A stretch of DNA of 64,000 bases from an uncultured Acidimicrobiaceae bacterium. GTDB taxonomy: Bacteria; Actinomycetota; Acidimicrobiia; Acidimicrobiales; RAAP-2. Under the pieces are notes generated by a model that had not been told where the DNA came from, did not search any database, and worked only from the letters and a program-made list of their open reading frames with translations. The DNA is taken from assembly GCA_963842415.1 (NCBI GenBank), contig CAWJGN010000003.1:225931-289930 (forward strand). The letters run 5' to 3'. Shown one piece after another: positions 39,746-58,687 of the stretch. Each line of letters opens with the position of its first letter. Position 1 is the first letter of the stretch. A program made the position numbers and the translations under genes.

Positions 39746-41520
39746 TGCGAGCTCAGGGGAGCGGCCCGGTCGTCGATGTGGAGCTGGCACTGCTGGTTCC
39801 CGTTCCTCCCGTCGCGCCGGACGTCGTCGTGGACTGCTGCGCACCGTTGGTCGTGGTGGTCGTCGGTCTCACGGTGGTCGTCGTCGAGTCGTTCGGAACG
39901 ACCGTCGTGGTCGTCGTGGTGCTGGCCCCACTTGCCCGCTGCTTGTGCGCCGACGGCGTGGTGGACGTCGGCGGGGCCCCCGAATTGCCCGGACTCCTGG
40001 AAGCCCGGGCCCTGGGTGCTGACGGACCCGGTGGCCGGCCCTGCCGGCGGCGTGCGCAGCGGCGTCGTCCCGCCGTGGAGGGTGGACAGCACGGAGTCGT
40101 CGTCGCCTTCCATCCCGAGCGCCCACGCGCCGACTCCGAGCAGGCCCGAGTCCCCCGCCAGTTGGACCTTGCCCGCGATCGTGTTGACGTTGTCGAAGAA
40201 GACCTGGTGCCACTGCCCGCCGCTCTGGTACGACGTCCACGCGGTCTGCGTGGCTGCGTCCCAATACGTGGGTCCCGAGGCCATGGCCTGTGCGTAGGTG
40301 ACCGTCTGCGACGGACCGGTGGCGGCGTCGCCCAGATCGGGACCGCTCGTCGGTTCGTCGTACCCGAAGAGTGGCAAGCCCAAGATGACCTTCGAGGCGC
40401 CTACCGCAGAGATGTACTGCGAGATGTAGCTCGCGTCCGCACCGCCGGCATTGCCGTTCCCCTGGGACGGCCCCTGGTTGACGTCGTACGCCATGACGAA
40501 GAAGGCATTGACCCATTTGCTCAGGCCCGCGATGTCGTAGAAACCGGAGGGGTCACCCGCTGAGGACGCGTACGTGGCCATGGTGAGCTGGTAGTGCGGA
40601 TCGGTCGTGTGCAAGATGAAGTCGACCTGCGACACCAGGTGGTCCAGACCGGCCTGGTCCCCGTTCCCGGTTCCTTCGAAGTCGAGGTTCACCCCGTCGA
40701 GGTTCTTGTCCTTCACCAGGTCCCTCAGTTGCAGCCCCAGCGTCACGCCTGCGTTCGGATCGTGAGTCAGCGTGTCGAGCGACGAGTTCGAAAAATCGGT
40801 CGCGGTCAACACGACCCGGTCACCCGCTTGGTGTGCCGCGTTCACGAGATCGGTGAAGTCCTGGCTCTCGTAGCCGTTCCAGCCCGACCCAGACGTCTGA
40901 ATCGTCCCGTTGGGGTTCACGTCGACGCCGAAGTACGCGATGGTGGAGAAGTCGTCGACTGGGATCTGTGAGGCCTCCGGGAGCGACCAGTACGGCGCGT
41001 AGCCGAACACCTCGTGCGCCGACGTCGGCGCTGACTCCGCGACCTGAGGCGGTGTCGGATCGGGTGTTGCTGTCGCTCGAGCCAGGTGGAGCACCGCCTG
41101 GCGCGTGGCGAGCCGGTCCGCCGCCGGGCTGTCTGCCACGTGCACGTGGGCCGGCGGGTTCGCACTGGTCGCCATGGTGAGCCCGGCGGCCAAGCCTCCG
41201 ATCAAGAGGGCAAAGCTGGCCACCGCCGATGGCGAGCTTGCGCAGCGGAACGCGTTCCCAGATCCGGGGAGGATCCTCCAGGTCGGCGGACGCGATCCTG
41301 ACCGGCGAAGACGCGGATCCTCGTCGCTGCGGACCCCCGGCTCGCCGACGGGCGCTTCGGTGGGATCAGCGCGGCCTGCGCCGAGACGGTGGAGAGGAGT
41401 TCCCAGGCGGTGCTGGGCGGCGTCTCCAGAGGGGTAGGGCCGGTGTACGACGCCGTCCGCGAGACGGAGTCGAGGAGCCCGACGGTGTCGGTGTCGGGCG
41501 TCGTTGGCACGGTCCCGCAT
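39736..41520 (-). CDS. membrane-anchored glycoside hydrolase family 18 protein; start and C-terminal tail frame uncertain
   Basis: TM segment VASFALLIGGLAAGL, then LDGVNLDFEG (DxxDxDxE), FFVMAYD, GLPLFGY and GVGAWALG. An alternative tail frame gives a Thr/Ser-rich end with TGA at 39753. It is part of the composite ORF 39736..42570. Confidence 0.72.
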   Translation of the reverse strand: MRDRANDARHRHRRAPRLRLADGVVHRPYPSGDAAQHRLGTPLHRLGAGRADPTEAPVGEPGVRSDEDPRLRRSGSRPPTWRILPGSGNAFRCASSPSAVASFALLIGGLAAGLTMATSANPPAHVHVADSPAADRLATRQAVLHLARATATPDPTPPQVAESAPTSAHEVFGYAPYWSLPEASQIPVDDFSTIAYFGVDVNPNGTIQTSGSGWNGYESQDFTDLVNAAHQAGDRVVLTATDFSNSSLDTLTHDPNAGVTLGLQLRDLVKDKNLDGVNLDFEGTGNGDQAGLDHLVSQVDFILHTTDPHYQLTMATYASSAGDPSGFYDIAGLSKWVNAFFVMAYDVNQGPSQGNGNAGGADASYISQYISAVGASKVILGLPLFGYDEPTSGPDLGDAATGPSQTVTYAQAMASGPTYWDAATQTAWTSYQSGGQWHQVFFDNVNTIAGKVQLAGDSGLLGVGAWALGMEGDDDSVLSTLHGGTTPLRTPPAGPATGSVSTQGPGFQESGQFGGPADVHHAVGAQAAGKWGQHHDDHDGRSERLDDDHRETDDHHDQRCAAVHDDVRRDGRNGNQQCQLHIDDRAAPLSSQCR

Positions 41521-41704
41521 CCTCGCGAACGGCCAGCGCCGCCCGGTCTCTCGCTGTGTCCACATCCTCTGACTGCCCTCCGTGCGGCGCACCGCCTCGG
41601 CCAGTCGTGCCGCGGTGTCCCAGAGGCTAGGCGAAACGGGTGAACCCGATGCAACATCGACGTAACACTGAGATGAACACTCTGATCCTCGAGGCGCCTC
41701 GCGG

Positions 41705-42570
41705 TCAGGAGCGAGGGGTGATCGACCCTTCGACCTGGGCCAACAAGGCTGCGAAGGCGGCCTCGTCGAGGTCGATCGGCGCCACAACGGCCCGGGCGGC
41801 GCTGCAGAGGACCCTCGCCGCCGCGTGTCCCCCGACGATGCAGCCACCAGCGCCTGCGTGACCACGGCCAGGATCGCCGCTCCCTGGGTCCTCCCGCTGC
41901 GCTCGTGCTCGGGCACCGCGCCGAAGCCCTCCATGGCCCCCTCGATGATCTGTGTGGCTTCTGCCGTGCGGCCTTGACGGAGCCGCAGCAGGGCCAGCGT
42001 GGTCTCGATGGACGGGTTCCCCGGAGAGACGCTACGGGCCACTTCGACGAAGCGCTCGGCATCGGCCAGCACGAAGGGATCGTCGAGCCGGGAAAGGTGG
42101 CCTAAGTCGCCGTGCACGAGCAGGCACCAGGCACGGGCATTGGCCAGGATCGAGCGCTCCTCCGCGGAGATGTCCCGGCGGGGATCACCTATGGGAGGTT
42201 CCTCGAGCGCCTTACGAGCCAGCCCCATCCCGTCGATGCGTTGATAGGGGCTGGCCCCGAGCATCAGCATGGACGCCAGGGAAACGTCCATGCGGGCGGC
42301 GTAGCTGTCTTCACCGGGTTGGTCCGAACCGAACCAGTCCTCGTCGGGCACCGGCTCGCCCCCGAACGCTTCCCCCTCGACCGGTCCGGTGACGACCGGT
42401 CCGGTGACGAGCGGTCCGTCGTCGGTGTCCCCACCGCCGAAGAACTCGCCGACCGGCTCGAACGCACCGCCGTCTCGTGACGCGTCTTCTCGAGGTGGGT
42501 CAGCCGGGGGGGCGGGCGGCGGCGCTGGCGAACCGCGCCAGCGACGCCGCGTGTGCTTGGCCACGACCAA
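41705..42570 (-). CDS. hypothetical protein (acidic/Gly N-terminus, helical TPR-like body), one frame disruption near 41825
   Basis: GC3-rich frame from 42570. After GDT the coding signal moves to the frame AAARVLCSAARAVVAPIDLDEAAFAALLAQVEGSITPRS-TGA (41705). Confidence 0.4.
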
Positions 42571-42800: not shown

Positions 42801-44770
42801 TCAGTCGCCGGCCGAGTCGCCGTCGGTCGTGACCGTGATGCAGTAGCCGATCGGCGCCGTGGCGCTGGCCGACTGAGTGCCGAGGGTGGCGCCGCCGTCC
42901 TCGACGTTGTTGTAGGTGCCGCTGACGGCCGAGTTGTCGGTGTCAACGTTGACGGGGCTGAAGCTCCAAGGCGCAGCCTCTTCGACTGAGGCCTGGTACT
43001 TGGAACCCTGCAGCCCGTCTGACCACGCCGGGTTCGGGATGCCCGCCTTCGTGCCGTTGTACTGGCCGGTCGAGTCGCCCTGGCCGTCCTCGACCTGGAG
43101 GTTCGGCAGCGGCGTGAAGCCCTCATTCGTGATCGCCGTGTCGATCTCCGAGCGGTAGGTCGCCCCGGTGTTCGGGTCGATGTCCGTCGCGGTCGAGGGC
43201 TTGCAGATGAACCCGTCCTCGCTGATGGCGTTCAGCGTCGCCGGGTTGCTGGCCGGGATCTCCGAGTTCGAGCCGTCCGAGTACACGTTGTACAGCAGGC
43301 GGTCACCCGGGAAGGCGCTCCCCTCCAGGCCAGGGAGCTGGTTGTTGATGTCAGCCTGGTCGAGTGCGATGCCGTTCAGCTTCTGACCCAACTGGACCTG
43401 CGTTCGCCTCCGATTCGTCCGACTTGCCCGTGCAGCCCGAGGCGAGAGTCTGCGTCGCAGCCCCCGCGGTGTTCGGGCAGAGCTGGTTGAAGCGCCCGTA
43501 CGAGAAGAAGAACATCACGTCACCCACGGGTGCGTGCGTGTCGTTGCCCAGGATCGACGACGTCTCGTTCTCGAAGATGATCTGCCTACTCGGCCAGTTG
43601 GAGGAGGTGCCCGGGAAGCTCGCGCCCGTGGCGGTCGCCCACGTCGACTCGGTGCCCGAACCGTTCTGCGCCCAGTAGGCGTAGATGGGGTGGGAGCTCC
43701 CGGCGGTGGTGCAGCCGAATACGGCGTTCCACGTCTCGCTGGGCACGCCGCCGCTGTACGTCTCGTTCCAGACCAGCTTGAGCTCACCGGTCGTGATGTT
43801 CGCCGCGCCGATCTGGTTGATGCACTTGGCGGCGTCGGTGCTGTTCGCCGACGTGCCGTTGTACGAGGTCCAGTACAGGTAGCTCACGGCGTCCTCGGCG
43901 TAGGCCACGAAGTTCAGACCCTCGAAGTCGCCACCGTTGGCTTGGTTCTGGGTGAGCTTCGGTGCCCGGGACGAGCGGGCCGCGTCGAGCGGAGACACGT
44001 TCACCGCGTTCGGGTTGCACGTACCCGACGAGCACGGGTTCAAGGTCGTGGCGGAGTGACCGACCACCGACGAGCTACCAGTGCCTTCGAGCTCCAGGAT
44101 GCCGCTGCTCGAACCGTACGACGGCTCCTCGACGAGGACGTCATTGAACGGGTTCTGCTGGCCCCAAGTGCTAAAGCCGTTCTCACCGTCTTGGGCGGTG
44201 GTGACGACCGTAACCGTGTCAGACGCCGAAGTCCCCGTCGTCTTCACCTGCAGCTTGATCTTGCCGCTCGTGGTGTTGAAGGAGGTGATGACGTCCCCGG
44301 TGGGGATATCGCCGGCGCTGTCGTAGACCAGGTCGCCCGCCTCGACGCCATCGCCCGCCGCGCCAGCCCCGAGCGTCACCTTCTTGGAGGCCCCTGTAAC
44401 CGGAACCGTGAAGGGCGACGACTGCGCAGAGGGTTGTGCCGTGCCCGCTTCGCCACCGAGTCCAGGGCAGCCGTAGTCGAGCGGCTGCACGCCGCTCGCC
44501 CCGCTGGTGCTGGTCTGACCGACGATGTCACAACCAGGGCTCTCGTTGAAGAGGGCGGCCTCGCCCTGCATCAAGAGGTAAGCGGTGTTCGAACCACCCT
44601 GAACGATGAGGTAGTTCTGGGCGGGTCGAGTTGTCCGCGTTCCCGTTGTTGACATTCTGGTTCTGGGCGGCGAAGGCGGGGGCGGCGAAGCCAATTGCCA
44701 GCGCCGACGCCCCCACAATTGTCGCGCCCGTCCGCAACGCGCGATGGCGTGCCAACAGCTTCTTCAGCAT
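42801..44770 (-). CDS. secreted PBP_like_2 (PstS-family-like) protein with large insertion, frame disruptions near 44615 and 43395
   Basis: Signal peptide MLKKLLARHRALRTGATIVGASALAIGFAAPAFA. NYLIVQGGSNTAYLLMQ, YWAQNGSGTESTW and KLNGIALDQADINNQLPGLEGSAFPGDRLLYNVY. AAAGGAGA lies before ATG 44770. Confidence 0.5.
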
Positions 44771-44944
44771 GTTGATGGGTCTCCTTTGTTGGTTTGTGTG
44801 TCTCTCCGATGCCAGCGTTCGCCGGCTCGGCAGCCAAAGGGCACCTCAGTACCGTGATCGATCCCTTCGCCGCCGCGCACTTAGGGAACCGGGGTAAACG
44901 TTCTGTGAACACCGCGCACACCCACGAAGAAATGTTCGTGTCTG

Positions 44945-44975
44945 TTTTCACCACGTTCACGGCGACTTCACTTGC
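44945..44975. promoter_or_regulatory. three TTCAC repeats (PHO-box-like) upstream of the third PstS-like gene
   Basis: TTCAC at 44947, 44956 and 44967 (spacings 9 and 11 nt), about 180-200 nt upstream of ATG 44770. Actinobacterial PhoP boxes are 11-nt direct repeats of GTTCACC-like units. Confidence 0.25.
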
Positions 44976-45106
44976 TACGCGGGAAGCAGGGCGGCGCCCT
45001 CTACGCAGGCCCGACACCGGGGTCCCCGCTCGCCGAAGCCGGCTCGCCGTCATGGGCCTTCGGTTGCCGTTCCGCGTCACGGTGCGCGAACGGCTGGTAA
45101 ACCGGA

Positions 45107-45683
45107 TCAGGTTCCGCCGGTGCTGCCGGAGTTGCCGAAGGTGCCGGGTCCGCCCGAGTTCGGAGTTGACGAACACCTTGGCGACGAAACCGGACGGCTC
45201 GAGCGGTGTAGCTGACCGGGCCTCCGGCGGGAGGCGTCCAGGTGAACGTTGCGCCTGGAGGGATGGTGCCCGAGTCGACCGGGTAAAACTTGTAGTCGTC
45301 GAAGACGATCCGTTGCGGGCTGCTGCGAGAGGTTGTACCAGACGATCGGGGCGCTGATGCTCGCCTGGAGGTCCTGAGGCAGGACACGCGACCGTCCTCA
45401 ATGATGATGTCCTGCCCGGGGTTGAGCCCCGGCTGAATCGTCTGGTAGCCGCCCCCCTTGGGCATCGTGGTCGTCGGGTCGGCGGCGCCGATGGACACCG
45501 GTCCCGTAGGTGACCCGCATCGGTGCGTTCACGGCCGAGAGGCCCTTGGGCTGCGCTCCGACAATGTCCGCTTTCGTCGTCGACGTGGTCGACTGCTGGT
45601 CCGAGGCGGCATTCGTCGGTCCGCCGCAGGCCGCAAGCCCCACGCCCAACGCGAGGAGCAAGGCCGCTGCAGCGACGACGCAT
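45107..45683 (-). pseudogene. small lipoprotein gene broken by about 5-6 frame shifts
   Basis: Stitching the frames gives MRRR/AAALLLALGVGLAAC-GGPTNAAS...VTYGTG/PVSIGAADPTTTMPKGGGYQTIQPGLNPGQDIIIEDGR/VLPQDLQASISAPIVWYNLSQQP/QRIVFDDYKFYPVDSGTIPPGATFTWTPPAGGPVSYT/PLEPSGFVAKVFVNSELG/GPGTFGNSGSTGGT-TGA. A beta-rich, possibly cupredoxin-like fold is a guess. Confidence 0.45.
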
Positions 45684-45732
45684 TGCCGCGTCGTTCAGTT
45701 CTCTTTCCGTTCACTTGCGACCTCAGCACGAA

Positions 45733-46763
45733 TCAAACCGTGGCGGGGAGAAACCCGATGATGCTCTCACAGGCGAACAGCGCGACCAGGAGCAGAACGG
45801 GTACGGCGAGAACGTACACCACGACCGGCTGGTCCCAACGTCGCACTAGCCACGCCGCGGCGCTCAAGAGGACGAAGAAGACGATGCACCAGAAGATGGC
45901 GAGCAGTCCCGACGCCGGATCGCCGGCCAGGCCGAGCTCTGCCGATGGCCACGTGGAAGTGTGGTTGGGTCGTGTCCGCCAGGGGCTTTCCCTCGAGCTG
46001 GGCGATGACCGCGAGCCTGCCCGTGCGGGAAGAACCCCGAGGCCGCCGTGACCAGCGTGAGGCGGTTCGTCGCGGTCTCGGTCACGACGTCGTGCCGTCC
46101 TCCTTCCGCGTAGACGACCCTCTTCACCTTGTAGTGATAGGTGCCGTACCCGTCGACGACGATGATGAGCTGACCCCTCTTGAGCGATCCGATGGCGCCG
46201 AATGGCGCGCCGAAGGTGGCACGTCGTCCCGCGATCACGGCGTTGCCCGGTTGCCCCGGCAACGCCGTCGTCGGCATGTGGCCCGGCCCGAGGCGCAGGT
46301 CCTGGGCGTCGGTGCCCTGCACGACCGCGTCGGTTTGGTGCAACGCGGGGATCTCCAGCACGGCCACCGGAGTGCCCTCCGGCGGCAGCTTCCCTTCCGC
46401 CAGGTTGAACGTCTTGGCCGGGCTGGCGGTGATCTCCTGGAGGAGAGTGTGTTGCGCACGGCCCTCGCTGAGCGGCGTGAAGAGGTAGATGTAGCCGAGC
46501 AGGAGCATGATGAACACGCCCAACCCGAAGATGAGCACGCCCGCGACGCGCGGACGGAGCAAGACCGCCAGCCACGAGCGAACCGTCGCGACGACGCGCT
46601 CGAACAGGACCTGCGCCTTCGACGGAGGCTGGGTCCGCACCGCTTGGCCCAACACGTCTGCGACGCGTGGCCCGGCGAACCTCTCGTCTCGCTTGTCCAG
46701 GTCCGTCGTATGTCCGGTCTCGGCCGACGCCTCCTCAGCTTCGTGGAGGGCGAGACCGTCCAT
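45733..46763 (-). CDS. class E sortase homolog lacking catalytic His and Cys (pseudo-sortase), two C-terminal frame disruptions near 46012 and 45935
   Basis: LRLGPGHMPTTALPGQPGNAVIAGRRATFGAPF, where sortases have IAGHR. NRLTLVTAASGFFP, where sortases have TLxTC. RLAVIAQL retains the Arg. N-terminal and C-terminal TM segments. ATGA overlap with the upstream gene. Confidence 0.68.
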
Positions 46764-49460
46764 CAGCCTCCCTCCGGTGGACCGGGGCCGCTGACGTCCG
46801 CGGTGCCATCGGCACCTCCCTCGGCGCTCCCGTCACCTGTCGCCCTCGCTGGCCTTCGTAGCGTCGGCGACATGTAGAGCAACGGCCCCGCGATCAGACA
46901 GAGGAGGGCCAAGAGCAACAGCGCCGGCACGAAGTAGCGGCTGTCGCCCACCGTCACGGTAATGAGGCGCCCGACGAAGTTGCCGGGGGAAGAACCGCCA
47001 GATCCACCCGTCGGCGCGGCGGTCGCTGACCCGTGCCCTGCAAACCTCGAGGAGGAGGAGCCACGTGTGCCCCCGGGACCTGCGGACGCGCCCAAGGCTG
47101 CTCCAGGCGCGCTCCCTACGCTTGTGGCGGGCGCTGAACCCGAGCCGGACGTGCCGTTCGACCCACCCGAGGAGGTCGAGCCGCCCGGCGACACGATGTC
47201 GCTGGCGATGTCGGTCAGGGCCTGGTTGTACAGGCTCTGTGGAAGCGGGACGTAGCCGGACGGCAACGGCAGCGAGGAGTTTCCACCGTCGTACGAGTAG
47301 GTGACCAGGTTCGTGAGAAGATCCTTTAGCTGCGTGGCCTCGTCCGCGGTCTCCTGGGCAGCCGTCGAGACCAGCGCATAGGTCACCATCGGCAATGGGT
47401 AGGCGCCGGCGTCACCCATGTCGTCCAGATCGGGTGACAGCGTGCCGTCGGGATTCTTGATTGCGTCGTTCAAGGCATCGTCGATCGACTGCGCGCTGGG
47501 ACCGACGAAGGCGCCGGCGGCGTTCTGCAGGCTGGCGGGCAGCAGGCCGAAGAAGTCGGCCTCCGAGCTGTCCATGGCGGTGAAGGCAAACCCGCCCGTT
47601 CCGCCGTACTTGGGGACGGCGGCGTCCACGACGTGTGCCGCCGTGATCGGAGAGCTGGAGGGGTCGTACACATCGTTGACAGTGGAGGTGTTTCCGGCGA
47701 AGTCACCAGGCAGTGTCGACAGCGTCTTGCACTCGTTGGTCGGGTAGATGATGTGCTGCTCGACCACCCCGGGCGTCAATCCATTCGGATTTATCCCTTG
47801 GTTGTTGGCGCCCGCCACCGGACCCTGTTCCGCGTCCGCGAGGACTTGTTGACCGCTCAGCAGGTCCTGCACGGACGCCGAGCCGCCGAAGGGCAAATTG
47901 ACCGTCGTCTTGAGGTTGGGCGTGTCGCACATCCATGCGGTGGTCTCGTAGGTGGCGCCACTTCCGGTGGAGGGCCACATCGCTCCGAGCTGTTCCTCAG
48001 TGGTCGTGAGGCCTCCGTCAGTGAACGGCCACGGGTTGAGCATGACGTATGCCGTGTCGCCGTAGTAGGCCATGTCGCTGGTCCCGATGTTGTCTCCTTG
48101 TCCGTCGTAGAAGGTGTCGGGAGGTCCGTAGGCGTAGGTATCGAAGGGATCGGTCTCGTCGGTGGTTGACGTCGCACCGCTCACGTCGAGATTGTCCGTC
48201 TTCCCGTCCGCCGATTCCACCAGCAGGTCCTTCGGGAAGCTCTGTTGCGTTTCCGTGCACTTCGCCGACCCGGACAGCTCGTAGCAGAGGTCGTCGTCGG
48301 GGTCAGCCGGCGACGCAACCGTGGAAGTCCACAGTTGCGTCATCACACCGGCCGCCATGGCGGGCGTCAGCTCGTACGAGTCGAGTGGATAGATCGCCGT
48401 ACTGCCTCCGAACGAAGACCCGGCGGCGCCACTGAACGCGATCTCCGTCGCTGAGGCGGCGATTGGGATGTAGGCGAACTTCCCACCCGCCGCATTCAAT
48501 TCGGCCACGGTCGCCGGGTCCTCCGGGTCGTCCGTGAAGCTGACCGGGGTACTGCCGTCAATGACGTCGTAGATCGGGCAGTGCGTGCCCGTGCCGTTGG
48601 CGCAGCCAGGGTCGTCGACCGACGGCAGCTCCGTCGGCAGCGCCGCGACGCCGCCTGGTCCGTTGCAGGTGGCCTCACCGGCAGCCGGGATGAACTGCGC
48701 GGCGCTGTAGGACGAGTCAACCTGCATAACCGGCGCCGTGCCGCACCCATCTCCACCCTGATTGAACGTGAGCGGGAAGATCACTGTGTTCCCCACGGCG
48801 GAGTAGTCCGGCGACGGCGGCTCGCCGTCCTGGTCGACGTCTTGGACCTCATCTTGCGGGATGTCCATGATCTCGACTCCGCACGGGTTGGACGCGTTGT
48901 CACAGAAGAAAGTGCCCGTCGAACCGGACGTGTACCCCTCGCAGCCCGGTGAACCCGACCCGACGACCTGGCAGCCCGTCTGCGACACGATCGCATCGGC
49001 ACCGGGGATATCGGGGTCGTACTCGGCTCGAGATGGCGAGGATGGTCTGGTTCGACGTGACGGTGCCGTACTCGTACTGCTCTGGCTCCGGTGTGGCCGC
49101 GCCGCCACCTTGTCCCGGGACCTCTGCCGCGCATTGCGGTTGAGCCACGACCTCTGTGCCCGTCCCGGCGAGCGAGCAGTAGGCGACCTCCAAATCGTCA
49201 CCGAGTGGGACGCCGGTAACATCGATGTACACGGCTTGGTTCAGGCCGACGTTCGTGACCGGTCCGGCGGTCACCGAGAACGGGGAGGACTGCTGGCTGC
49301 ACGTCGCTGTCTCGGGCGCGCACCCCGTAGACACGTCCGAGGGGGATACCGACGCCGTGGCGACGTCGCCGTGCGCCGATGCGAACACCAAGAGGCTGAG
49401 ACAGGCGACGACCAGCGCCGCCGCCAGGCGGAGGCTCCGGCCGGTTCTGGTCAGGCTCAC
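46763..49460 (-). CDS. large (about 900 aa) secreted PstS-family-like protein with C-terminal TM anchor, one frame disruption near 49030
   Basis: GTG 49460 overlaps the upstream stop (GTGA). Signal peptide LRLAAALVVACLSLLVFASAHG. FAYIPIAASATEIAF, GAYPLPMVTYALVST, a Gly/Ser linker, and the TM segment YFVPALLLLALLCLIAGPLLYM. Confidence 0.5.
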
Positions 49461-51155
49461 GTCACATTGCTCCGCGGACCGGGTGTCACGCCGCCCCCAG
49501 GGTCGGAAAGATCGGGTCGCCTGCGCCGTTGGAGCAGCCACAGGGCGAGCGGGACTCCGGCGATGACCAGTATGAAGACGGTGGACCACAGTGCGATCTG
49601 CGCCGGCGACCAACCCGAGAGCGCCCGGGTGGCCGCGCCCGTCAGCGCCGTCTGGCGCGGATAGACGGCCTCGGGGTTGGTGAGGGGATCGAGAGCCTTC
49701 CTCAACTTGGCCGCCTGTGCCGCAGCCGCGACGGCGCTGGTGGCGGCGGTACTGGTCGCTCCGCCACTTGACGCCGCGCCGGCTGCGGCAGCCGCGGCGT
49801 GGGCCTGTCCGGCCGCGGCGACGGCGGCCCCCGCACCGCTGAGGTCGGAGCCGCCGGGGTTGGTCGTCGAGAGAACCGTCGGACCGCCGACCGGCTGCAG
49901 CGCCCCGGTGATGTAAGGGTTCTGGCAGTTCTGGGCGGTCGGCGGAGGCGGCGTCGTCCCTCCGGGCAGTCGCCCGGCCGCCTGGAAGTCGTCCTCGACC
50001 AGGTTGGGCGGTATGGGCGAATAGCCCAGCTTGGCCATGTTGACCTGTCCGAGGCACGCGACGTACGTGATGAACTGGGACAGTTCCGCACCTTGGGCCG
50101 CGCCAAACGTGACGTTGCCCGCACTGTCACACTGGAAGCTCTGTTGCGCCGCCTGCGCCGGCACGCACTGGGCAACGAAGTAGCTATAGGCAGAGATCGG
50201 GTAGGTGGCCGGGTTCGGGTTCGTGTACACCCCACCCAGGTTCTGCGTCAGGTCCGAATACAGGATCGCCGCCGTCAGCGCCTCTGCCACGTTGTAGGAC
50301 GCGGGTTGGACCGCCACACCGGCGGCATTGACCACCGAGGCCACGGGCAAGCCGACGTTCTTGGCGTAGGCGGTCTCGACGTACGAGATGCCACCTTGAG
50401 TCTGCAGGGGTTCCTGCGAGGCGGCGTCGGCACCGTTCTCCCCCACCAAGGTGTCCAGGTTGGCCGGGACGCCATTACTGAAAGAGGCCCACGTGGCCGA
50501 CGGTGTGCCCGGAGTGGTGGGGACTGACGCCTCCTGCTGGAAGGCGGTGATCGGGCCAGGGTCGACGTGCAAGAAGTAGTCGGACAGGAGGTAGTTCTCA
50601 CCGGAAGGGTCGCTGCGGTAGAACGCGGTGATCGACTGGTTGGGCAGCGGTATGCCCGGGTTCAAGGCCTGGATGGCCGAGTCGTTCCAGTTCTTGATGG
50701 CGCCGGTGAAGATCCCGAGCAGCGTCGGACCGTTGAGAACGAGGTTCGTGATCCGTTGGCCGTTGGCGCCCTGGAGGTTGTACTCGAACGCGAGCCCACC
50801 CGCGACGTCAGGCATGTACTGGAACGGGTAGGGCACCTGAGCGGTGCTGCAGTCCGCCTGCCCGGTGGCGTAGGAGATATCAGTGGCGCCGAAATTGACC
50901 GTGTTGTTGCAAAAGTCGTTCATCCCGACGATGGAACTAGAAACCGTGAAGTTGATGTCACCGCCGTCGATTTCGTCGAATTGGCCCTCCCATTCCGAGA
51001 TCGCCACGCCGGCGAAGCTCGAACCCGTGGAGTTGAGCTGCGGGTCCGTGGCACCAGCCGGCTGGGCCTCGGACACGATCGCAGCCCGAGTAGCCGACCA
51101 CGCTGGCCACGATCACCGTGGCCAACACGCAGGCAAGGCGACGCAAGGTTGTCAT
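49457..51155 (-). CDS. PstS-family phosphate-binding-like protein with Ala-rich linker and C-terminal TM anchor, one frame disruption near 51078
   Basis: Signal peptide MTTLRRLACVLATVIVASVVGYSG. LNSTGSSFAGVAISEW, VNFGATDISY, GGISYVETAYA and YPISAYSYFV. C-terminal IALWSTVFILVIAGVPLALWLLQRRRR. ATGA overlap with pstB. Confidence 0.65.
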
Positions 51156-52036
51156 CCGAACCTCCCGTGCACGTAGTCAGCTGTCCGCGGGTCCGATGGG
51201 TTGGAGAACATGGTTTCGGTCGGGCCCCACTCGACCACGTGTCCTGGCTTTCCTTCGGCAGCGAGGAAGAAGGCGCACATGTCGGACACCCGCTGCGCCT
51301 GCTGCATGTTGTGGGTCACGATGATCACGGTGACCTCGTGGGCGATGTCCCGGATGGTCTCTTCAATGCGGTTGGTCGAGGTCGGGTCGAGCGCGGAACA
51401 CGGTTCGTCCATGAGGAGCACCCTCGGCCGCACCGCCAAGGCGCGGGCGATGCAGAGCCGCTGCTGCTGGCCACCGGAGAGCGACCCGCCCAACTCGTCC
51501 AAACGATCCTTGACCTCGTTCCACAGGCCCGCCTTCGCGAGCATCTCCTCCACGAGTTGGCGGCGCCGGGTCGCAGGCAGCTTGACCCGGGAGAACTTGA
51601 GCCCGGCGAGGACGTTCTCCTCGATCGTCATCGCCGGAAACGGGTTCGGCTTCTGGAACACCATGCCGATGTGTTTGCGGCTCTCCGTGGCGCGGGTGCC
51701 ACCGCCGTAGATGTCGACTCCGTCGAGCTCCACCCGTCCGGCCAACTGGGCACCGGGGACGAGCTCGTGCATGCGGTTGAGAATGCGGAGGTAGGTGGAC
51801 TTGCCACAACCCGAAGGGCCGATCAGCGCCGTCACCTGTGAGGGCTCCATGTTGAGCGAGACGGACTCGAGGACGAGCCTCCCACCGAACCAGGCGCAGA
51901 CGCCGTACGTCTCGAGCCGGGCCGGCTGCGGCGTCGGAGCCGCGATGGCCGGGACCTGGGCGGTGGCGGCCGCGATGGGGACCCGGGCCGTAGGAGCTTC
52001 GGCCGTTCTCGAGCGCTCGCGCGAGAAGACCTTCAT
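51152..52036 (-). CDS. pstB: phosphate ABC transporter ATP-binding protein
   Basis: ATG 52036. GPSGCGKST, LSGGQQQRLCIARAL, LLMDEPCSALD and VTHNMQQA. Confidence 0.92.
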   Translation of the reverse strand: MKVFSRERSRTAEAPTARVPIAAATAQVPAIAAPTPQPARLETYGVCAWFGGRLVLESVSLNMEPSQVTALIGPSGCGKSTYLRILNRMHELVPGAQLAGRVELDGVDIYGGGTRATESRKHIGMVFQKPNPFPAMTIEENVLAGLKFSRVKLPATRRRQLVEEMLAKAGLWNEVKDRLDELGGSLSGGQQQRLCIARALAVRPRVLLMDEPCSALDPTSTNRIEETIRDIAHEVTVIIVTHNMQQAQRVSDMCAFFLAAEGKPGHVVEWGPTETMFSNPSDPRTADYVHGRFG

Positions 52037-53289
52037 CGGCCGACCAGACTCTTCGCCCAGTGGACGGGCACCTTGATGAGCCCGCGTACCCGGCCCTTCC
52101 GGGTCGATCGCCGGCCCAGCAGCCGGGCCAGCACGAACAGGATCAGCACGAGCGCGAGGAGCACGAACGCGGCGGTGAAGGCCAGCTGCACCACCACTGC
52201 TTGCGCCGCAAAGATGTTCTCGTACAGCACCAGGGGCAGCGCGCCCTGGGGACCGTGGAACGGGTCGGCGTTCAAGGTGTTGGCCCCGAAGGCGGTGAAG
52301 ATGAGCGGGGCGGTCTCGCCCGCGGCGATCGCGACGCCGAGGATCACGGCGGTGACGAGGCCCGAGCGTGCGGTGGGGAGGACGACCTGCCGCACGGTCC
52401 GCCACTCCGAGGCCCCGAGTGCCAGTGACGCTTCACGGAGTCCTCCCGGCACGACCCGCAGCACTTCTTCCGTCGTTCTGGTGATCGACGGGAGCATCAG
52501 CACGAACAGCGCGATGGCGGCGGCGAAACCTGAGTACCCGAAGATGTGGGACTCGATGAAGATGGCATAGATGAAGACACCGGCGACGACAGAGGGAACC
52601 CCGCTCATGGCCGTCACGATGGTGCGGACGAACCTCGTTCCCCACCCTCCGACCTCGTTCAAGAAGATAGCGGTGAGAAAGGCGATAGGGACCGCCATGA
52701 CAGCCGCCAGCCCAACCTCCTCGAGCGTTCCCACGATGGCCTGGCCCACCCCGACTTCACCGAAGAGCTTGGACCCCAGGGCCGGCTGGTAGTCCTTCAT
52801 GGTTCGGGTCAGGAACCCGAAACTGAAGTGGGCGACGCCCTTGAGCACGACCCAGATAACGATGTAGAGCAACGCACCGACGACGACTGCCGCGCAGGTT
52901 CCCACCATCGTCGTCACCACGCGGTCGGTGGCAGCGGAGCGATCGACCACTTGGTTGGTCACGACCCAGAACACCGCGAGGAAGCACGCGTACCAGCAGA
53001 TCAGGAAGCCGAACGCCCCCGACAACAACGTCAGTTGATAGAACAGGACCCACACCACGGCGAAGGACGACAGCGCCGAAGCAGCCAGCAGTGCGACTCC
53101 CTGGGATCCGAAGTCACGGGTCCGGCGTGGTGGCGCGAGGGGGACCGCATGCGTCGCATCGCCAACCAGGACCGCATGGCTCAGAGTCCGGTCCGAGCGC
53201 ACAGGAAGCGTGGCCGCCGCGCCATTGCCGTTCGGTTGGAAACCGGTCGGGGAATCGAGTAGCTCGTGGACGCCGGACTCCGGCGTCAT
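52033..53289 (-). CDS. pstA: phosphate ABC transporter permease PstA (long N-terminal extension), intact
   Basis: ATG 53289 overlaps the pstC stop. LPSITRTTEEVLRVVPGGLREASLALGASEWRTVRQVVLPTARSG and AAGETAPLIFTAFG. Confidence 0.85.
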   Translation of the reverse strand: MTPESGVHELLDSPTGFQPNGNGAAATLPVRSDRTLSHAVLVGDATHAVPLAPPRRTRDFGSQGVALLAASALSSFAVVWVLFYQLTLLSGAFGFLICWYACFLAVFWVVTNQVVDRSAATDRVVTTMVGTCAAVVVGALLYIVIWVVLKGVAHFSFGFLTRTMKDYQPALGSKLFGEVGVGQAIVGTLEEVGLAAVMAVPIAFLTAIFLNEVGGWGTRFVRTIVTAMSGVPSVVAGVFIYAIFIESHIFGYSGFAAAIALFVLMLPSITRTTEEVLRVVPGGLREASLALGASEWRTVRQVVLPTARSGLVTAVILGVAIAAGETAPLIFTAFGANTLNADPFHGPQGALPLVLYENIFAAQAVVVQLAFTAAFVLLALVLILFVLARLLGRRSTRKGRVRGLIKVPVHWAKSLVGR

Positions 53290-54294
53290 ATTTCGACGCC
53301 CTTCCCACTCCGTGACCGGTTCACGACCATCGATGCGATGAGGTTCACGATCAAGGTGAAGGTGAAGAGGACGAACCCGAGCATCAAGAGATCTTGCGTC
53401 CCGAGATTGCCACCTGAGCCGAAGTACGCCGCGATGGATGCGGCTACCGTCTGCCCGCCGTGTTCGAGGATGTGCGGCGAGATCAAGGGGACGTTCCCGA
53501 GGATCACCAGGACCGCGATCGTCTCCCCCAGCGCGCGGCCGAGGCCGAGCATCGAGGCGCCGATCATGCCGCCACGTCCAAAGGGGAGGACAACGGTTCT
53601 GATCATCTGGGACTTGGTCGCACCCAATGCGTACGCCCCCTCGCGCTCGCCGGGGGGGGCCAGGCTGAAGACCTCGCGCGACACCGAGGCGACGATGGGC
53701 ACGATCATGAGGCCGACCACCAATTCCCGCGATAAAGAAAGATTCGGCGAACGGCGGCGCCGAGGCTTGGAAGATCGGGATGAAAGAGAGGTGGCGCACC
53801 ATCCACGAGGTCGTTCCGGTGATCTGGGGTTGGAACTCGTGGAGTGCCCAGAGGCCGAAGATGATGCTCGGAATGGCCGCACCCAGGTCGACCATCGCGA
53901 TGAGCGCGCGTCGAATCCGCAGGGGGGCGTACTCGGTCAGGAACAGCGCCGTGCCGATGGCCACGGGCACGCCCAAGATCACGGCGATGATGGCGATGAC
54001 GACCGTGCCGAACATCTGCGCCAGCGCTCCGAAGTGGTACGGCTTGTGGATGGTCGAAAAGCCCGAGGTCGTGAAGTACTTCCATCCCATGGCCCGAAAG
54101 GCCGGGAAACCTCGGTAGAGCAGGAAGAACCCTATGAGGAACAAGATGACGAAGGCGAAGAAGCCTGCCGTCCGTACCACTACACGAAAGATCTTGTCCT
54201 CTCGTGATCGGTCATTGGGGACCGTGATCGGACTCGGAACACCGCCCGGCTGCGGTGCCTCTGTGACCGAGTGAGCCAGGACGTCGGTAGACAC
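53286..54294 (-). CDS. pstC: phosphate ABC transporter permease PstC, one frame disruption near 53727
   Basis: LTEYAPLRIRRALIAMVDLGAAIPSIIFGLWAL. The second frame carries VVGLMIVPIVASVSREVF...EGAYALGATKSQMIRTVVLPFGRGG...GETIAVLVILG. Confidence 0.85.
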
Positions 54295-54324
54295 GGCAGG
54301 TTACCGACCTCGGGGGACTGACAG

Positions 54325-54360
54325 GTGCAGAACTGCCAAGTGCAGAACTGGGGAGTGCAC
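54325..54360. promoter_or_regulatory. direct repeats with 15-nt phasing upstream of pstC
   Basis: GTGCAGAACTG at 54325 and at 54340, then GTGCAC at 54355. They lie 30-65 nt upstream of the pstC GTG (54294). Confidence 0.3.
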
Positions 54361-54454
54361 CAAATCAAGCTAGCCGCTTGACATTACCGGACTTTGGCGT
54401 GGGGGTGAACGGAGGGTTACACCTCCGCTCACCCCCAAAACGCCCTTCGAGCAG

Positions 54455-56268
54455 CTATCCCGAGACCGTCTCCACGGTGAGGGTGGTGGAGCTCTTGACC
54501 GTCTTGTAATTCGAGTCGCCCGAGTAGACCGCCTTGATCCTGTACGGCGAGTCGCTCGTCATCAGCGCATCCGGGCCGATCTTGCACTTCCCCACGCCCT
54601 GGTTCTTCAGCGTCGTGGAAATGTTGATCACATTGTCGGTGCCGATCGAGGCAGGTGAGCTGGTCCCCGGAGGCGCCGGTGATCGTGTACGTGACCGTCC
54701 CGCTCGGCGCGCCCAGCACATTGCTAGTTGACGGCGAGTCGGCCTGAATCGCTGTCCGGATCCTCAGGGCCGTCCCTTGCTTGGCCGGGTTGCGGCTCAG
54801 AACGAGCTGCATCGAGCTGGCAACCTGGAAGACATCGATGTGCCCCACGGAGGACGAGTTCGCCGCCTGGTCCGTGTCTCCCAGGTAGGACGCCGAAACG
54901 TCGTAGAAGCCGGGATGGAGGCCCTCAGGTATCGAGATGGTGACCTTGTTCTCGCTTTTCTTGATGTCGGTCCTGGTCGGGCGTCGGAAGGTTGAGGTTC
55001 CCGCCCAGCGTGCCGGTCTGTGGGGTGCACTGGGTCTGGCTGGTCGGGCACACTGCCCACTCCAAGAGGCCGGTCGGCGCACCGGTGCCCGGCGCCACGG
55101 TCTTGACGGTGACGCTGAACGAGAACGCCTGCGAGAACACGAGCCCACCAGGGACCCCCGACAGCACCACGTTGCTGGGAGCCCGGTTGACCGGCTGGAC
55201 GAGCGAGGCGGCAACGGGAGTCCTGAAGTTGGGGTCCTGGAGCGTCGCCGTCACGGTGTAGGTCAGCGACGTCGCCTGGAGGCCCTTGGGGAAGTTGCAC
55301 ACCGCGCTCGTACCTGAGAGCGGGACGGTGTCGCCGCCTTGACACGTGACCACAGTTCCATTGGATCCGACCACAGAGAAGACGATCGACCCCATCGGCG
55401 TGCCCGCGCCGGGCGGGTTGATGCCGGTGATGGTTGCGGTGAAGGACACGGGCTGTCCCGAGTCGGGCGTCGAGCTCGCCGAACTCGCGAGCGCAATGGT
55501 GGCCACGGCTCGGTCAACTGTTTGGGTCAACGTTCCGGTGCTCTTTGCATAGTTGGTATCGCCGGAGTAGGACGCGGTCACGGCGTAGGTCGAGTTAGCG
55601 GCTAACAGGCCAGCGCCAACTGAGCACTGGGCCATGTCGCTGCTGTCGAGCGGCTGGGTGTCGCCGGCGTCGCACGCGATCGAAGCCCCTCCAGTTCCGG
55701 TGATCGAAAAGGTGACCATGCCGGTCGGCATACCTGTCGAGGGGCTGTTCGGCGCCACGACAGCTGTGAACGTGACCGGCTGGCCCGTGACGGTGGGATT
55801 CGACGCGGACGTCAGCGACGTCGTGGTCCGCCCCTTGTAGATGGCCTCGGACAGCGTCCCGGTGCTTGCGGTGTAGTTGGCGTCACCGGAGTAGACCGCC
55901 GAGACCGAGTAGGGCGAGGCGTCCGCAAACAGACCGGCACCAATAGTGCACTGTGCGCTGCTGCCCGGGCTGGCCGGCCCTAGTGCGATCGTGTCCCCGC
56001 CGCCGCAGACAGGAGTAGAGGAATCGGCTCCGGTGATGTCGAAGGTCACCGTGCCCGTCGGCGTCTGATTCAGACGAGTCACTGTGGCCGTGAAGGTGAT
56101 GGACTCGCCGGTGACAACGGGCGCCGTCGTGGCTGTGACAGTCGTGGTGGTGCTCTTGGTCGTGGCCGCCGCCGGTGACGCGACGAGCGCCAGGCTCAAC
56201 AAAGCCAAGGCCGTACCAACCGCAGCCACTCGAAGTGCAATTCTCCGCACAATCTTTCCCTTCGCCAT
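54455..56268 (-). CDS. secreted protein with five bacterial Ig-like repeats, frame disruptions near 54975 and 54652
   Basis: ATG 56268 is preceded by AGGGAGG. Signal peptide RIALRVAAVGTALALLSLALVASPAAA. Roughly 105-aa repeats of the type SxNPxxxGQPVTFTAxV...GxPTGxVTF...C...YxVxAxYSGDxNYxxS. Confidence 0.7.
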
Positions 56269-56369
56269 GGAAACCTCCCTCACGATCATTGTTGATCACG
56301 CCCGCGACGGCGCGCGGACACTTCGCCTACTTCGCCGATTGGCGAACCGCCTGATTCGCTTGCTCTTCC

Positions 56370-57034: not shown

Positions 57035-57719
57035 ATGATCGAAGGTTACGGTATGCCCCCCGCGCAGGGCACGGTGAGGGTGGCGACGAGGCGCGACGTG
57101 CCTGCAGTCGCAGCGCTGCACGGAGTCGCGATCGGTGAGGGTTTTCTGTCTACTCTCGGCGACCGGTTTCTGTCCCGCCTCTATTCGCGCATCGTCGCGT
57201 CGTCCCACGGATTCCTCCTCGTGGCAGACAGTCCCGAGCTGTCGGTGGGACAGAAGTCGGGTCTCGCGGGCTTCGTCGCCGGTTCCGCTGAAGTCGGTCG
57301 GCTCTACCGCGAGTTCCTGGTGCGAGATGGGCTCTCTGTCGCGGTGTCCTCGACTACGAGACTGCTGCGATCGTTGCCTCGGGTGATCGAGACCCTCCGC
57401 TACGGGGCAACCGACGAGCCTGCTGGAGACGGACCATCCTCAACCGCTGGAGCACAGGGTCCCGAGACGGAGTTGCTGGCCCTCGCAGTGGATGGTGCCG
57501 AACGCCGACGTGGTGTCGGGACTGACCTCGTGGAGGCCTTCTTGCGAACCGCCACGCGCCACGGGGTCGTCTTCCGCCCGCGTCGTCGTCGGTGGGGAGA
57601 ACCACAGCGCGATCGCGCTGTACAGCCGCGCCGGCTTCAGCGAATCCACCCGACTCGAACTGCACTCCGGAACCGAGTCGCTCCTCATGCGGGTCGGTCT
57701 GCACCGCGCACTGCAGTGA
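57035..57719 (+). CDS. GNAT family N-acetyltransferase, one frame disruption near 57572
   Basis: VRVATRRDVPAVAALH and LALAVDGAERRRGVGTDLV. The second frame carries ARVVVGGENHSAIALYSRAGF and ends at TGA 57717-57719. Confidence 0.62.
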
Positions 57720-57734
57720 CGGAGAACCTCGCGC

Positions 57735-58687
57735 GTGGCCGCCGGCGCGTTCGTCATCTCGATACTCGCGACCCCGTTGGCGGCGCGGTTCGCCGTACGG
57801 GTGCAGCTGGTGGATCGGCCCGGGGCTTTGAAACCTCAAGCCCACGCCACGCCCTATCTGGGCGGTGTCGGGCTCGGTTGTGGCGCCGCAGTGGGCGCGG
57901 CCGTGCTCGACCCCTGGCTGTTGGTGCCGTTGGGAATGGCGTTGGCACTGGGCACCGCAGACGATGTCCGACCACTGGCCCCCTTCACCCGGGTGCTGGG
58001 GACATTGGCGACCGGTCTGGTCCTTGCCGCGGTCATCTCGACGCGTTTCGGTGATGCCGGGTTCCTCCTCGTGCCCGTGGCATCCATTGCCCTCGTCAAC
58101 GGTTTCAACCTGCTCGACGGGCTGGACGCGCTCTGCGGCTCGGTGACCCTCATCGGAGCCGCAGGCTTCGCTTTCCTCTTGAGCGGAGACGCCCGCGGCT
58201 TCGCTCTGGCGCTGGCCGCCGCCGCCGCCGCGTTCTTGTTCTTCAACCGGCCGCCCGCCAAGGTGTACCTCGGAGACGGCGGCGCCTACTTCGTGGGCAT
58301 CTCCATGACCGCGCTGCTCGCGACCGCTTGGGCTCCTGGAGAAGGTCGAACGACGGGAGTCGGGGCTCTTGCGCTCGTGGCTCTTCCCCTCGTCGAGGTC
58401 GCCCTGGCACTGTTCAGGCGAGTGGCGCTCCGGCCGCTCGCTTCTCTCTGGTGATCGCGATCATCCCTACGACGTCTTGGTCCGGTCGGGGTGGAGCATC
58501 CCTCGGACGGTCGCCGCCTACGCCCTGGCCGAACTCGTCGCCCTCGCTCTGGCAGTTCTGGCCTCACATCTGAGAGTCCAGCTGGCGTGGGCGGTCGTGG
58601 GCGTCACGGCAGCTCGGCCTTCTTGCTGCCGGCCTCGGGGCAGGAGGATCTCCGTGTTCGAAATCGATCGACAAGCTCTCGACGTGA
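57735..58687 (+). CDS. WecA/MraY-family polyprenyl-phosphate sugar-1-phosphate transferase, two frame disruptions near 58425 and 58610
   Basis: VDRPGALKPQAHATPYLGGVG, VNGFNLLDGLDAL and LGDGGAYFVG. Then GDRDHPYDVLVRSGWS. The last frame ends in a TGA overlapping the next GTG (GTGA at 58684-58687). Confidence 0.7.

Follow-up and report, generated by a model that had tools for sequence, protein, structure and literature searches.

What kind of phosphate transport system is encoded when genes for PstS-like binding proteins follow pstCAB instead of preceding it, specify proteins of unusual size that end in membrane helices and are joined to a gene for a sortase homolog? This arrangement occurs in a stretch of 64,000 nucleotides (nt) of contig CAWJGN010000003.1, from an uncultured Acidimicrobiaceae bacterium, which is called the window throughout and to which all coordinates refer; the locus lies on its minus strand throughout. 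We read the minus strand from ~54421 to 42801 as a conserved actinobacterial variant of the Pst operon, in which a protein of 565 residues, here termed PstS1, would be the cognate phosphate receptor, two larger PstS-fold paralogs are divergent and a pseudo-sortase would act as a non-catalytic adaptor. We assign this reading a probability of about 60%. The parts are of known kinds (a Pst transporter, the PstS fold and the sortase fold), and the operon itself is an undescribed, widely conserved actinobacterial Pst variant.

Profile searches give the gene order on the minus strand as pstC, pstA, pstB, PstS1, a protein of ~900 residues, the sortase homolog, a lipoprotein remnant and a third PstS-fold protein. 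An earlier note on this DNA had placed pstCAB ahead of the PstS-like genes, and both the profile searches and the loci of relatives bear this out. The five start/stop overlaps that it listed also read as described, namely ATGA between pstC and pstA (53286–53289), between pstA and pstB (52033–52036) and between pstB and PstS1 (51152–51155), GTGA between PstS1 and the gene for the ~900-residue protein (49457–49460) and TGATG between the latter and the sortase homolog (46761–46765). The same overlapping junctions are present in a related locus (L001). Because all five junctions consist of overlapping start and stop codons, the genes are likely to be co-expressed as a translationally coupled unit. 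The permease gene pstC (53286..54294) is split by a 1-nt insertion at ~53720, and its two halves match TIGR02138 with 103 and 139 bits; the intact PstC ortholog of L001 scores 240.9 bits against a cut-off of 196.45. The second permease gene, pstA (52033..53289), encodes 418 residues, including an N-terminal extension of ~120 residues, and matches TIGR00974 with 228.9 bits, above the cut-off of 193.45. The ATPase gene pstB (51152..52036) encodes 294 residues and has TIGR00972 as its far best match. That PstC, PstA and PstB form a phosphate ATP-binding cassette (ABC) importer, as these profiles predict, is well supported. A canonical pstS immediately upstream of pstC, which would have restored the usual order, was not found; the upstream neighbor is a gene for an immunoglobulin-like (Ig-like) protein of the Big_3_5 family. 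No phoU was seen in the cluster.

PstS1 (49457..51155) matches PF12849 (E = 1.8e-23, 84 bits, cut-off 27) and TIGR00975, and its orthologs are 555–567 residues long. It consists of a signal peptide, a canonical PstS domain, a linker rich in Ala, Gly and Pro and a C-terminal membrane helix with RRRR after it. In an alignment with 34 orthologs, the nine phosphate-ligand positions of E. coli PstS are kept with conservative changes: T10 is Ser or Thr, F11 is Phe or Trp, S38 is retained, D56 is Asp or Glu, R135 and D137 are retained and, in the anion loop, S139 is retained (Ala in three sequences), G140 is retained and T141 is Glu, Ser or Thr. The corresponding motifs are GSSF (within 51008–51031), FGATD (50879–50893) and YRSDPSGEN (50594–50620). 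Because all nine ligand positions are kept, PstS1 is a credible phosphate receptor and, judged by these residues, it is the only one of the three PstS-fold proteins with a canonical phosphate pocket. The absence of a lipobox from PstS1 and from the ~900-residue protein, each of which has a signal peptide and a C-terminal membrane helix, had been recognized from the outset and is correct. An apparent lipobox in PstS1 (GYSGC in a frame-1 reading) was rejected as an artefact of the extra base at 51084; the relatives read GYSGAI or GSSGAI at this point. It is well supported that PstS1 is the cognate phosphate-binding protein, with a predicted attachment by a flexible linker and a C-terminal membrane helix and without an N-terminal lipid.

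The ~900-residue protein (46763..49460) begins with a signal peptide, followed by a neocarzinostatin-like β-sandwich, a PstS-fold domain with large insertions, a disordered linker and a C-terminal membrane helix. None of its 57 homologs, nearly all of ~900 residues, has a precomputed Pfam domain. In profile searches the protein itself had no Pfam match, and TIGR00975 aligned only over its C-terminal third (36–38 bits). An AlphaFold2 model was calculated for an intact homolog (P0002, 91% identical) from 48 sequences, with a predicted local distance difference test score (pLDDT) of 74 and a predicted template-modeling score (pTM) of 0.74. Its best 26 Foldseek matches in the Protein Data Bank (PDB) are all phosphate-binding proteins, headed by PstS-1 of M. 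tuberculosis (1pc3, E = 1e-10), and superposition on classical PstS proteins gives target-normalised TM-scores of 0.63–0.74 at 10–16% identity. Residues ~50–200 match neocarzinostatin-type β-sandwiches (2mcm), residues 763–843 are disordered in the model and residues 845–864 form a helix. The family aligns with PstS at 95% probability in hhalign, which pairs WPSTGSGA (47954–47977) with RRADGSGT of E. coli, so that Arg135 is replaced by Pro and Asp137 by Thr; the Ser-Gly of the anion loop is kept, with S502 and G503 invariant in the family. A candidate lipobox (LVVAC) was discarded, as the family consensus does not keep its Cys and the hydrophobic stretch extends to an ASA-type cleavage site.

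The third PstS-fold protein (42801..44770), of ~650 residues, has a signal peptide and no membrane anchor. It matches no Pfam or TIGR profile itself; the distant members among its 133 homologs contain PF12849, and their sources annotate them as phosphate-binding proteins. The AlphaFold2 model (calculated for P0059 from 69 sequences; pLDDT 82, pTM 0.84) again returns only phosphate-binding proteins as its best 24 Foldseek matches in the PDB (E = 3e-6, TM-score ~0.5). The motif AQNGSGTES (43645–43671) belongs to a family pattern, WAQNGSGTE, that would replace Arg135 with Ala and Asp137 with Asn in a low-confidence hhalign mapping. Its GSGTE portion is almost fully conserved. A second motif, LDAARSSRAP (43960–43989), contains a conserved R-S-S-R at the place of E. 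coli Asp56, again by a low-confidence mapping. The gene appears to be tandemly duplicated in L015 (14679–19359) and L019 (14661–19027), where tblastn matches span ~4.5 kb. Pairwise BLASTP among the three PstS-like proteins detected no significant similarity. The earlier note had called all three PstS-like, and this is borne out by PF12849 and TIGR00975 for PstS1 and by Foldseek and profile comparison for the two larger proteins; a result placing the large proteins outside the PstS fold was not obtained, the best Foldseek matches of their predicted models being phosphate-binding proteins. The inspection of the anion pockets that it proposed gave a mixed outcome, with a canonical pocket in PstS1 and loss of Arg135 and Asp137 in the other two. 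Its suggestion of a surface phosphate capture module is plausible for these two proteins from their predicted fold and location.

A tentative alternative, and the one that survives best, is that the ~900- and ~650-residue proteins are receptors for a different ligand, either a phosphorus compound or an oxyanion (for example organophosphate, polyphosphate, phosphite or arsenate), which they would deliver to the same PstCA, widening its substrate range. This amounts to the capture module of the earlier note taken in its strong sense. Both families keep the two-lobe PstS fold and the anion-loop Ser-Gly (S502/G503 and GSGTE, respectively), both replace Arg135 and Asp137 in a conserved manner (P498/T500 and Ala/Asn) and both genes are co-transcribed with pstCAB; the R-S-S-R of the ~650-residue family at the Asp56 place fits the same idea. 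However, Arg135 is the main charged ligand, and its absence is just as compatible with a pocket that no longer binds; a simple receptor would have no need of the large insertions or the additional β-sandwich, and the residue mapping is partly of low confidence. The reading that we prefer, with PstS1 as the cognate receptor, is less specific about the two paralogs: the membrane-anchored ~900-residue protein and the secreted ~650-residue protein would most likely bind a non-classical ligand instead of free orthophosphate, or else have a structural role at the surface.

The sortase homolog (45733..46763), 347 residues in intact relatives, consists of an N-terminal membrane helix, a sortase-fold ectodomain and two extra C-terminal membrane helices. 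It matches PF04203 (71 bits, cut-off 26.6) and TIGR01076 (44.3 bits, cut-off 39.35). The class E model NF033747 gives 84 bits, under its cut-off of 160, so that the generic sortase models alone are passed; the closest PDB sequence matches of the sortase-like domain are nevertheless class E sortases (E ~3e-11). At the position of the catalytic His, GNAVIAGRR (46221–46247) aligns with GNFAVAGHR of 5go5 and has Arg; at that of the catalytic Cys, TLVTAAS (46038–46058) aligns with TIVTCTN of 4d70 and TLITCVS of 2kw8 and has Ala. Of 120 close homologs, 119 have Arg at the His position, 95 have Ala and 23 have Ser at the Cys position, and 115 retain the conserved sortase Arg. The same two positions also align with H120 and C184 of S. 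aureus SrtA. Both catalytic residues are lost in all 46 loci with a sortase-homolog match, among them the window, the His position being Arg everywhere except in L044 and L046, which have Lys. The description as a sortase homolog thus stands as regards the fold and the PF04203 domain and falls as regards the activity that the name implies, the catalytic His and Cys being lost throughout the family. Public sources call members of the family 'sortase A' or 'class E sortase'; going by its residues, the protein is a pseudo-enzyme that cannot carry out transpeptidation.

The pseudo-sortase ends in LPATV-COOH (45736..45750). An end of the form LP[ASG]T[VLFM]-COOH (pattern LP.[TS]x) occurs in 205 of the 261 family members, most of the exceptions being fragments, and L343, P344, A345 and T346 show little or no variation in the family alignment (A3). 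Because the N-terminus is inside the cell and three membrane helices are predicted, this LPXT motif would lie outside, beside the sortase-fold domain. One sequence that might have been a fusion of a PstS-like protein with the pseudo-sortase (P0346, 980 residues) was set aside, as no membrane helix separates its extracellular and cytoplasmic parts and it is probably a frameshift read-through. In one distant locus (L053, JGI metagenome 3300043760, 12208–13965), a gene of the Exosortase_EpsH family lies two genes downstream of the sortase-like gene, with genes for Neocarzinostat-domain proteins nearby, which hints that in some lineages another sorting enzyme could act on the C-terminal tails.

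The C-terminal tails of the two anchored binding proteins share a pattern. They read WSPAQIALWSTVFILVIAGVPLALWLLQ-RRRR in PstS1 (49517..49612) and SRYFVPALLLLALLCLIAGPLLYMSPTL-RR in the ~900-residue protein (46853..46942), and in 40 of 40 PstS1 and 39 of 39 ~900-residue orthologs they comprise a hydrophobic helix, a Pro near its cytoplasmic end and a cluster of Arg or Lys. The Pro stands in the contexts AGVPL, AGPLLY or GPPL (GPxL-like), with the basic cluster 4–8 residues later; in the ~900-residue family, 38 of the 39 orthologs have G.?P within 14 residues before the cluster. Apart from this helix-Pro-basic pattern the two sets of tails are dissimilar. No LPXTG or LAXTG signal was found within ±10 kb in the window or in the Acidimicrobiales loci. 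Two candidate sorting signals were rejected: TALTG in the PstS1 tail of the window resembles LAxTG and is not conserved, and LPLTG or LPLTS occurs only in a few distant ~900-residue orthologs, ~40 residues before the helix. Two loci of the subclade with the latter motif, L029 (8798–12442) and L038 (7826–12241), have open frames of 1214 and 1471 codons that span PstS1 and the ~900-residue homolog and are either read-through or fusion artefacts or real fusions.

These features suggest how the parts might work together. The pseudo-sortase would be a non-catalytic membrane adaptor that keeps the peptide-binding groove of a sortase, and this groove may hold the protein's own extracellular LPAT[VLF] terminus. 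The Pro-containing helix-RRRR tails on PstS1 and on the ~900-residue protein may be partners of the three membrane helices of the pseudo-sortase, an association that would keep the tethered binding proteins near the permease. A bolder version, which we consider doubtful though worth stating, is that a new kind of non-catalytic sortase descendant is at work, whose groove binds its own LPXT as a pseudo-substrate or switch and whose helices recognize GPxL-RRRR tails as a signal, assembling one canonical and two divergent PstS-fold proteins into a surface complex on PstCA.

The gene order and overlaps recur in about 45 independent genomes, which is beyond chance. Every gene is intact in two contigs that carry ~900-residue homologs of 71% and 49% identity, in the order Big_3_5, pstC, pstA, pstB, PBP_like_2 (565 residues), ~900 residues, sortase (347 residues), 206 residues, 658 residues, 305 residues and GH18. 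Scanning one genome per species gave 46 loci, the gene content of which was then established by tblastn. The core pstC-pstA-pstB-PstS1-900aa-sortase homolog-(206 aa)-650aa is present in ~40 species-level metagenome-assembled genomes (MAGs) of the Acidimicrobiales or Acidimicrobiaceae. The survey of relatives proposed at the outset thus finds the order pstC-pstA-pstB-pstS in all Acidimicrobiales loci. In Actinokineospora (two of them as complete genomes), one Thermoleophilia MAG and one other Actinomycetota MAG, the operon has a rearranged form, with the order pstC, pstA, PstS, an 840-residue homolog, further surface proteins, the sortase homolog and pstB. Because pstB follows the sortase homolog, the surface-protein genes of this form lie inside the pst operon. 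In Actinokineospora auranticolor (L043, NZ_CP154825.1), three extra genes stand between the PstS-fold genes and the pseudo-sortase (16481–19857), encoding a protein judged DUF916-like by eye, with a C-terminal membrane helix, a protein of 252 residues and a Thr/Pro-rich protein with the sorting signal LASTG. Counterparts of the last have LANTG and LADTG in L045 and L047, and the LAxTG protein is encoded just upstream of the sortase homolog; such proteins were found only in the Actinokineospora variant loci. When contexts were retrieved through the pseudo-sortase alone, those of P0270, P0338, P0437 and P0412 all contained pstCAB, PBP_like_2 and a protein of 500–840 residues, and a fifth contig was too short to judge. 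Neither the pstCAB-S order nor a C-terminally anchored PstS was found in Pfam, NCBIfam or the targeted literature, and the same holds for giant PstS-fold paralogs with a β-sandwich and for a family-wide inactive sortase with a terminal LPXT. Targeted full-text searches of the literature returned no description of a link between sortase and pst, of the pseudo-sortase or of a C-terminally anchored PstS. Two observations on individual loci are added here. An Ig-repeat protein is encoded inside the variant operon of L043 (14788–16365), and the Ig-like gene may be a loosely linked part of the system. In L039 a second pstA/pstC pair lies on the opposite strand (20019–21613), ~7 kb downstream of the operon.

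It has also to be considered that the ~900-residue protein, the pseudo-sortase, the lipoprotein and the ~650-residue protein form a surface or cell-wall module unrelated to phosphate transport that merely shares a transcript with pstCAB. The neighborhood is rich in envelope-glycan genes (glycosyltransferases, a DegT aminotransferase, GH18 and Ig-like proteins), and in the Actinokineospora variant the genes between pstS and the pseudo-sortase encode Ig-repeat, DUF916-like and wall-anchored LAxTG proteins. We nevertheless regard such a module as improbable: the ~900- and ~650-residue proteins are themselves of PstS fold, three classes of Actinomycetota show the linkage to pstCAB, as does every context retrieved through the pseudo-sortase alone that is long enough to judge, and in the variant loci pstB is downstream of the module.

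The window copy of the operon is itself interrupted. When it is compared with intact orthologs and with L003 and L004, two relatives of ~90% identity, at least ten single-base insertions that interrupt its genes are found within ~15 kb. Relative to L003 and L004, all on the minus strand, 1-nt insertions lie at ~54978 and 54649 in the Ig-like gene, at ~53720 in pstC, at ~51084 in PstS1, at ~49027 in the gene for the ~900-residue protein, at ~46022 and 45946 in the sortase homolog and at ~44625 and 43401 in the third PstS-fold gene; multiple insertions lie between 45683 and 45055 in the lipoprotein gene, and one base is missing at 41822 in the next gene. The proteins of 565, ~900 and 650 residues that the earlier note described therefore have no uninterrupted open reading frame (ORF) in the window and are intact only in relatives. 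Its mention of a broken lipoprotein gene is accurate as far as it goes, and pstC, PstS1, the gene for the ~900-residue protein, the sortase homolog and the third PstS-fold gene are frameshifted as well. Because flanking genes also carry single-base insertions relative to close relatives (for example at 57554, 57730, 41616, 41315, 39992 and 39404), the problem is not restricted to the pst cluster, and every ORF-based reading of the window must allow for frameshifts. Truncated products 100% identical to window ORFs stand in the public protein collection (P0001, 701 residues; P0058, 406 residues; P0178, 299 residues), and the frameshifts therefore belong to the deposited assembly. Tracking of third-position G+C content (GC3) by frame, used to compare the frameshift load across the window, was not discriminating.

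The frameshifts might be real mutations of a decaying pseudogene cluster that is non-functional in this organism. At least ten frame-disrupting single-base insertions in ~15 kb, at least eight indels in the lipoprotein gene alone and truncated products in the public record would suit decay. Yet the insertions are spread evenly over the cluster and the flanking genes (GH18, the 305-residue gene and the genes at 57.5–57.7 kb), the frames are otherwise open and 57–90% identical to intact orthologs in the main aligned segments, the events are almost exclusively +1 insertions, a signature of error, and long-read soil MAGs with 'contig_N' names are the source of most of the related loci. We consider decay unlikely; most likely, from the pattern of the indels, the insertions are errors of the deposited long-read MAG assembly and not gene decay.

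The last alternative concerns the pseudo-sortase and arises from its wider family, for which a profile search of 1.84 billion representatives returned 977 clusters (50% identity) at E ≤ 1e-30. In the best 141 new representatives, the His position is Arg in 108, His in 25 and Lys in six, the Cys position is Ser in 104, Ala in 20 and Cys in five, and no nucleophile is conserved across the family. That the protein is still an enzyme, using Ser as nucleophile to cleave or attach the anchored binding proteins or to cleave itself at LPAT|V, could draw on the Ser in 104 and the His in 25 of those 141, on the conserved Arg (115 of 120) and on the LPXT motif, but is very improbable in view of the uniform Ala and Arg at the Cys and His positions in the whole clade of the window, the lack of a family-wide nucleophile and the lack of LPXTG or LAXTG signals in the binding proteins of the Acidimicrobiales loci.

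Upstream of the operon, a PHO-box-like pair of 11-nt direct repeats, TGTAACC ctcc GTTCACC cccc, lies on the minus strand at 54400..54421, ~116 nt from the pstC start. The PHO box of S. coelicolor consists of two 11-nt units with the core GTTCACC (PMC4415409), and the core of the second repeat in the window is identical to it. Such a repeat is present 93–137 nt upstream of pstC in 27 of 42 loci, compared with ~0.008 expected per locus. Because this repeat precedes the operon, expression under phosphate starvation is likely, and Pho-type control is predicted from it. A stem-loop between the Ig-like gene and pstC (minus strand, 54396..54444; −41.1 kcal/mol, z = −7.1, with none of 200 shuffles folding as well) includes the second repeat unit in its 3′ arm. 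It is restricted to the near relatives of the window and is probably a terminator of the upstream gene in that clade. Other clades keep the repeat without the hairpin, so the direct repeat and not the hairpin is the conserved element; the hairpin was dropped as a candidate regulatory element, being strong only in near relatives. A σ70 promoter scan found nothing, and terminator-like matches were at chance level. Between the repeat and hairpin and the pstC start there is also a 15-nt tandem duplication, CAGTTCTGCACttgg/CAGTTCTGCACctgt (minus strand, 54319–54348), which is single copy in L003 and L004.

Several points weigh against our reading of the locus as a conserved Pst variant with PstS1 as its receptor. 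PstB (TIGR00972, 321.9 bits, curated cut-off 343.2) and PstS1 (TIGR00975, 164 bits, cut-off 205) both score below the equivalog cut-offs. The assignment of ligand residues in the ~650-residue protein is of low confidence, as it depends on a low-probability hhalign alignment and on motifs read by eye. The PHO-box-like pattern is a regular expression defined after the sequences had been seen, and it fails to match 15 of the 42 loci. At least some carriers have two Pst systems, because L039 holds its second pstA/pstC pair. Docking of the LPXT tail and contact of the pseudo-sortase with the binding-protein tails are conjecture. Finally, if the insertions in the window were real, this particular copy would be non-functional.

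The remaining features concern the lipoprotein and the surroundings of the cluster. The small lipoprotein remnant (minus strand, 45001..45661) was located by tblastn with the L001 ortholog and has a lipobox, LAACGG, at 45620–45637. The protein has 206 residues in relatives and no Pfam or NCBIfam match; the window copy carries at least eight indels relative to L003 and L004, and the gene is missing from many distant loci in the tblastn survey. The Big_3_5 Ig-like surface-protein gene (minus strand, 54368–56289), directly upstream of the PHO-box-like repeat, encodes ~600 residues in relatives and has two frameshifts in the window. Downstream of the cluster (minus strand, 39979–42570) are genes for a 305-residue protein without a Pfam match and for a GH18 chitinase-like membrane protein with a Thr-rich tail; both are frameshifted in the window and are kept only in the closer relatives (L001–L022 and L027). 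The outer flanks (34506–37940 and 57035–63218) consist of envelope-glycan genes, with products that include a GT4/GT1 glycosyltransferase, a DegT/EryC1 aminotransferase, an MraY-like Glycos_transf_4 protein, a GNAT protein and a Branch/sulfotransferase-like protein.

The locus has consequences beyond the window. With C-terminal tethers, giant PstS-fold proteins and a sortase-derived partner, it would be a different build of a high-affinity phosphate importer in a single-membrane cell. Acidimicrobiales of soil are abundant and mostly uncultured, and their phosphate scavenging therefore matters for the cycling of soil phosphorus. A family of ~977 clusters that lacks the catalytic Cys is annotated as sortases, and censuses of sortases and surface anchoring in Actinomycetota are inflated by it. 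The pseudo-sortase may be a case of evolution from enzyme to adaptor and, if it binds its own LPXT or the anchors of the binding proteins, may reveal a new C-terminal sorting or tethering signal. The system can be tested, as some carriers are in culture, among them Actinokineospora, for which there are complete genomes.

Separate features of this arrangement have counterparts elsewhere. Binding proteins of the oligopeptide class of ABC transporters in Sulfolobus have a C-terminal Ser/Thr-rich linker and a membrane anchor. These archaeal proteins resemble the anchored proteins described here in their cleavable signal peptide, binding domain, low-complexity linker and C-terminal helix in place of a lipid anchor, but they belong to another domain of life and another substrate class and have no associated sortase-like protein. 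In class C (pilus) sortases, a lid occupies the active site as a pseudo-substrate. The likeness lies in a part of the sortase itself that could fill the groove for the sorting signal; here, however, the candidate part is a true LPXT motif, which follows a membrane helix at the C-terminus of a protein without an active site, and its docking is conjectural. Mycobacterial PstS proteins are lipoproteins of ~370 residues with complete phosphate pockets. In PstS-1 of M. tuberculosis, the Ser-Gly of the anion loop is presumably followed by an acidic residue, as it is in PstS1 (SGE). The paralogs of M. tuberculosis (PstS-1, 1pc3; PstS-3, 4lvq) likewise represent an actinobacterial pst locus with several PstS-fold proteins. 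In the present locus, by contrast, two paralogs have 650–900 residues and extra domains and have lost Arg135 and Asp137. DING proteins are soluble, of ~40 kDa, with a full phosphate site and neither a membrane anchor nor a β-sandwich domain. Together with HPBP (3w9v, 2v3q, 4f1v) they are enlarged PstS-fold phosphate binders and are among the Foldseek matches. Class E sortases (5go5 and 5go6; SrtE1, 5cuw) share with the pseudo-sortase the N-terminal membrane helix, the GNxxxAG-x-R and TLxT motifs and the conserved Arg, whereas the pseudo-sortase has Arg for His, Ala or Ser for Cys, two extra C-terminal helices and a terminal LPXT, and its Acidimicrobiales loci contain no LAxTG substrate. The closest parallel to the transporter is E. 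coli PstSCAB (cryo-EM structure 9k3x; PMC12976172), with which it shares the best profile matches of PstC, PstA and PstB, the nine ligand positions of PstS1 and an upstream PHO-box-like repeat. In contrast to the E. coli system, pstCAB here precedes pstS, the cluster has no visible phoU, the binding protein has 565 residues and a C-terminal membrane anchor, being neither free in the periplasm nor an N-terminal lipoprotein, and the operon includes two further genes for giant PstS-fold proteins together with a pseudo-sortase.

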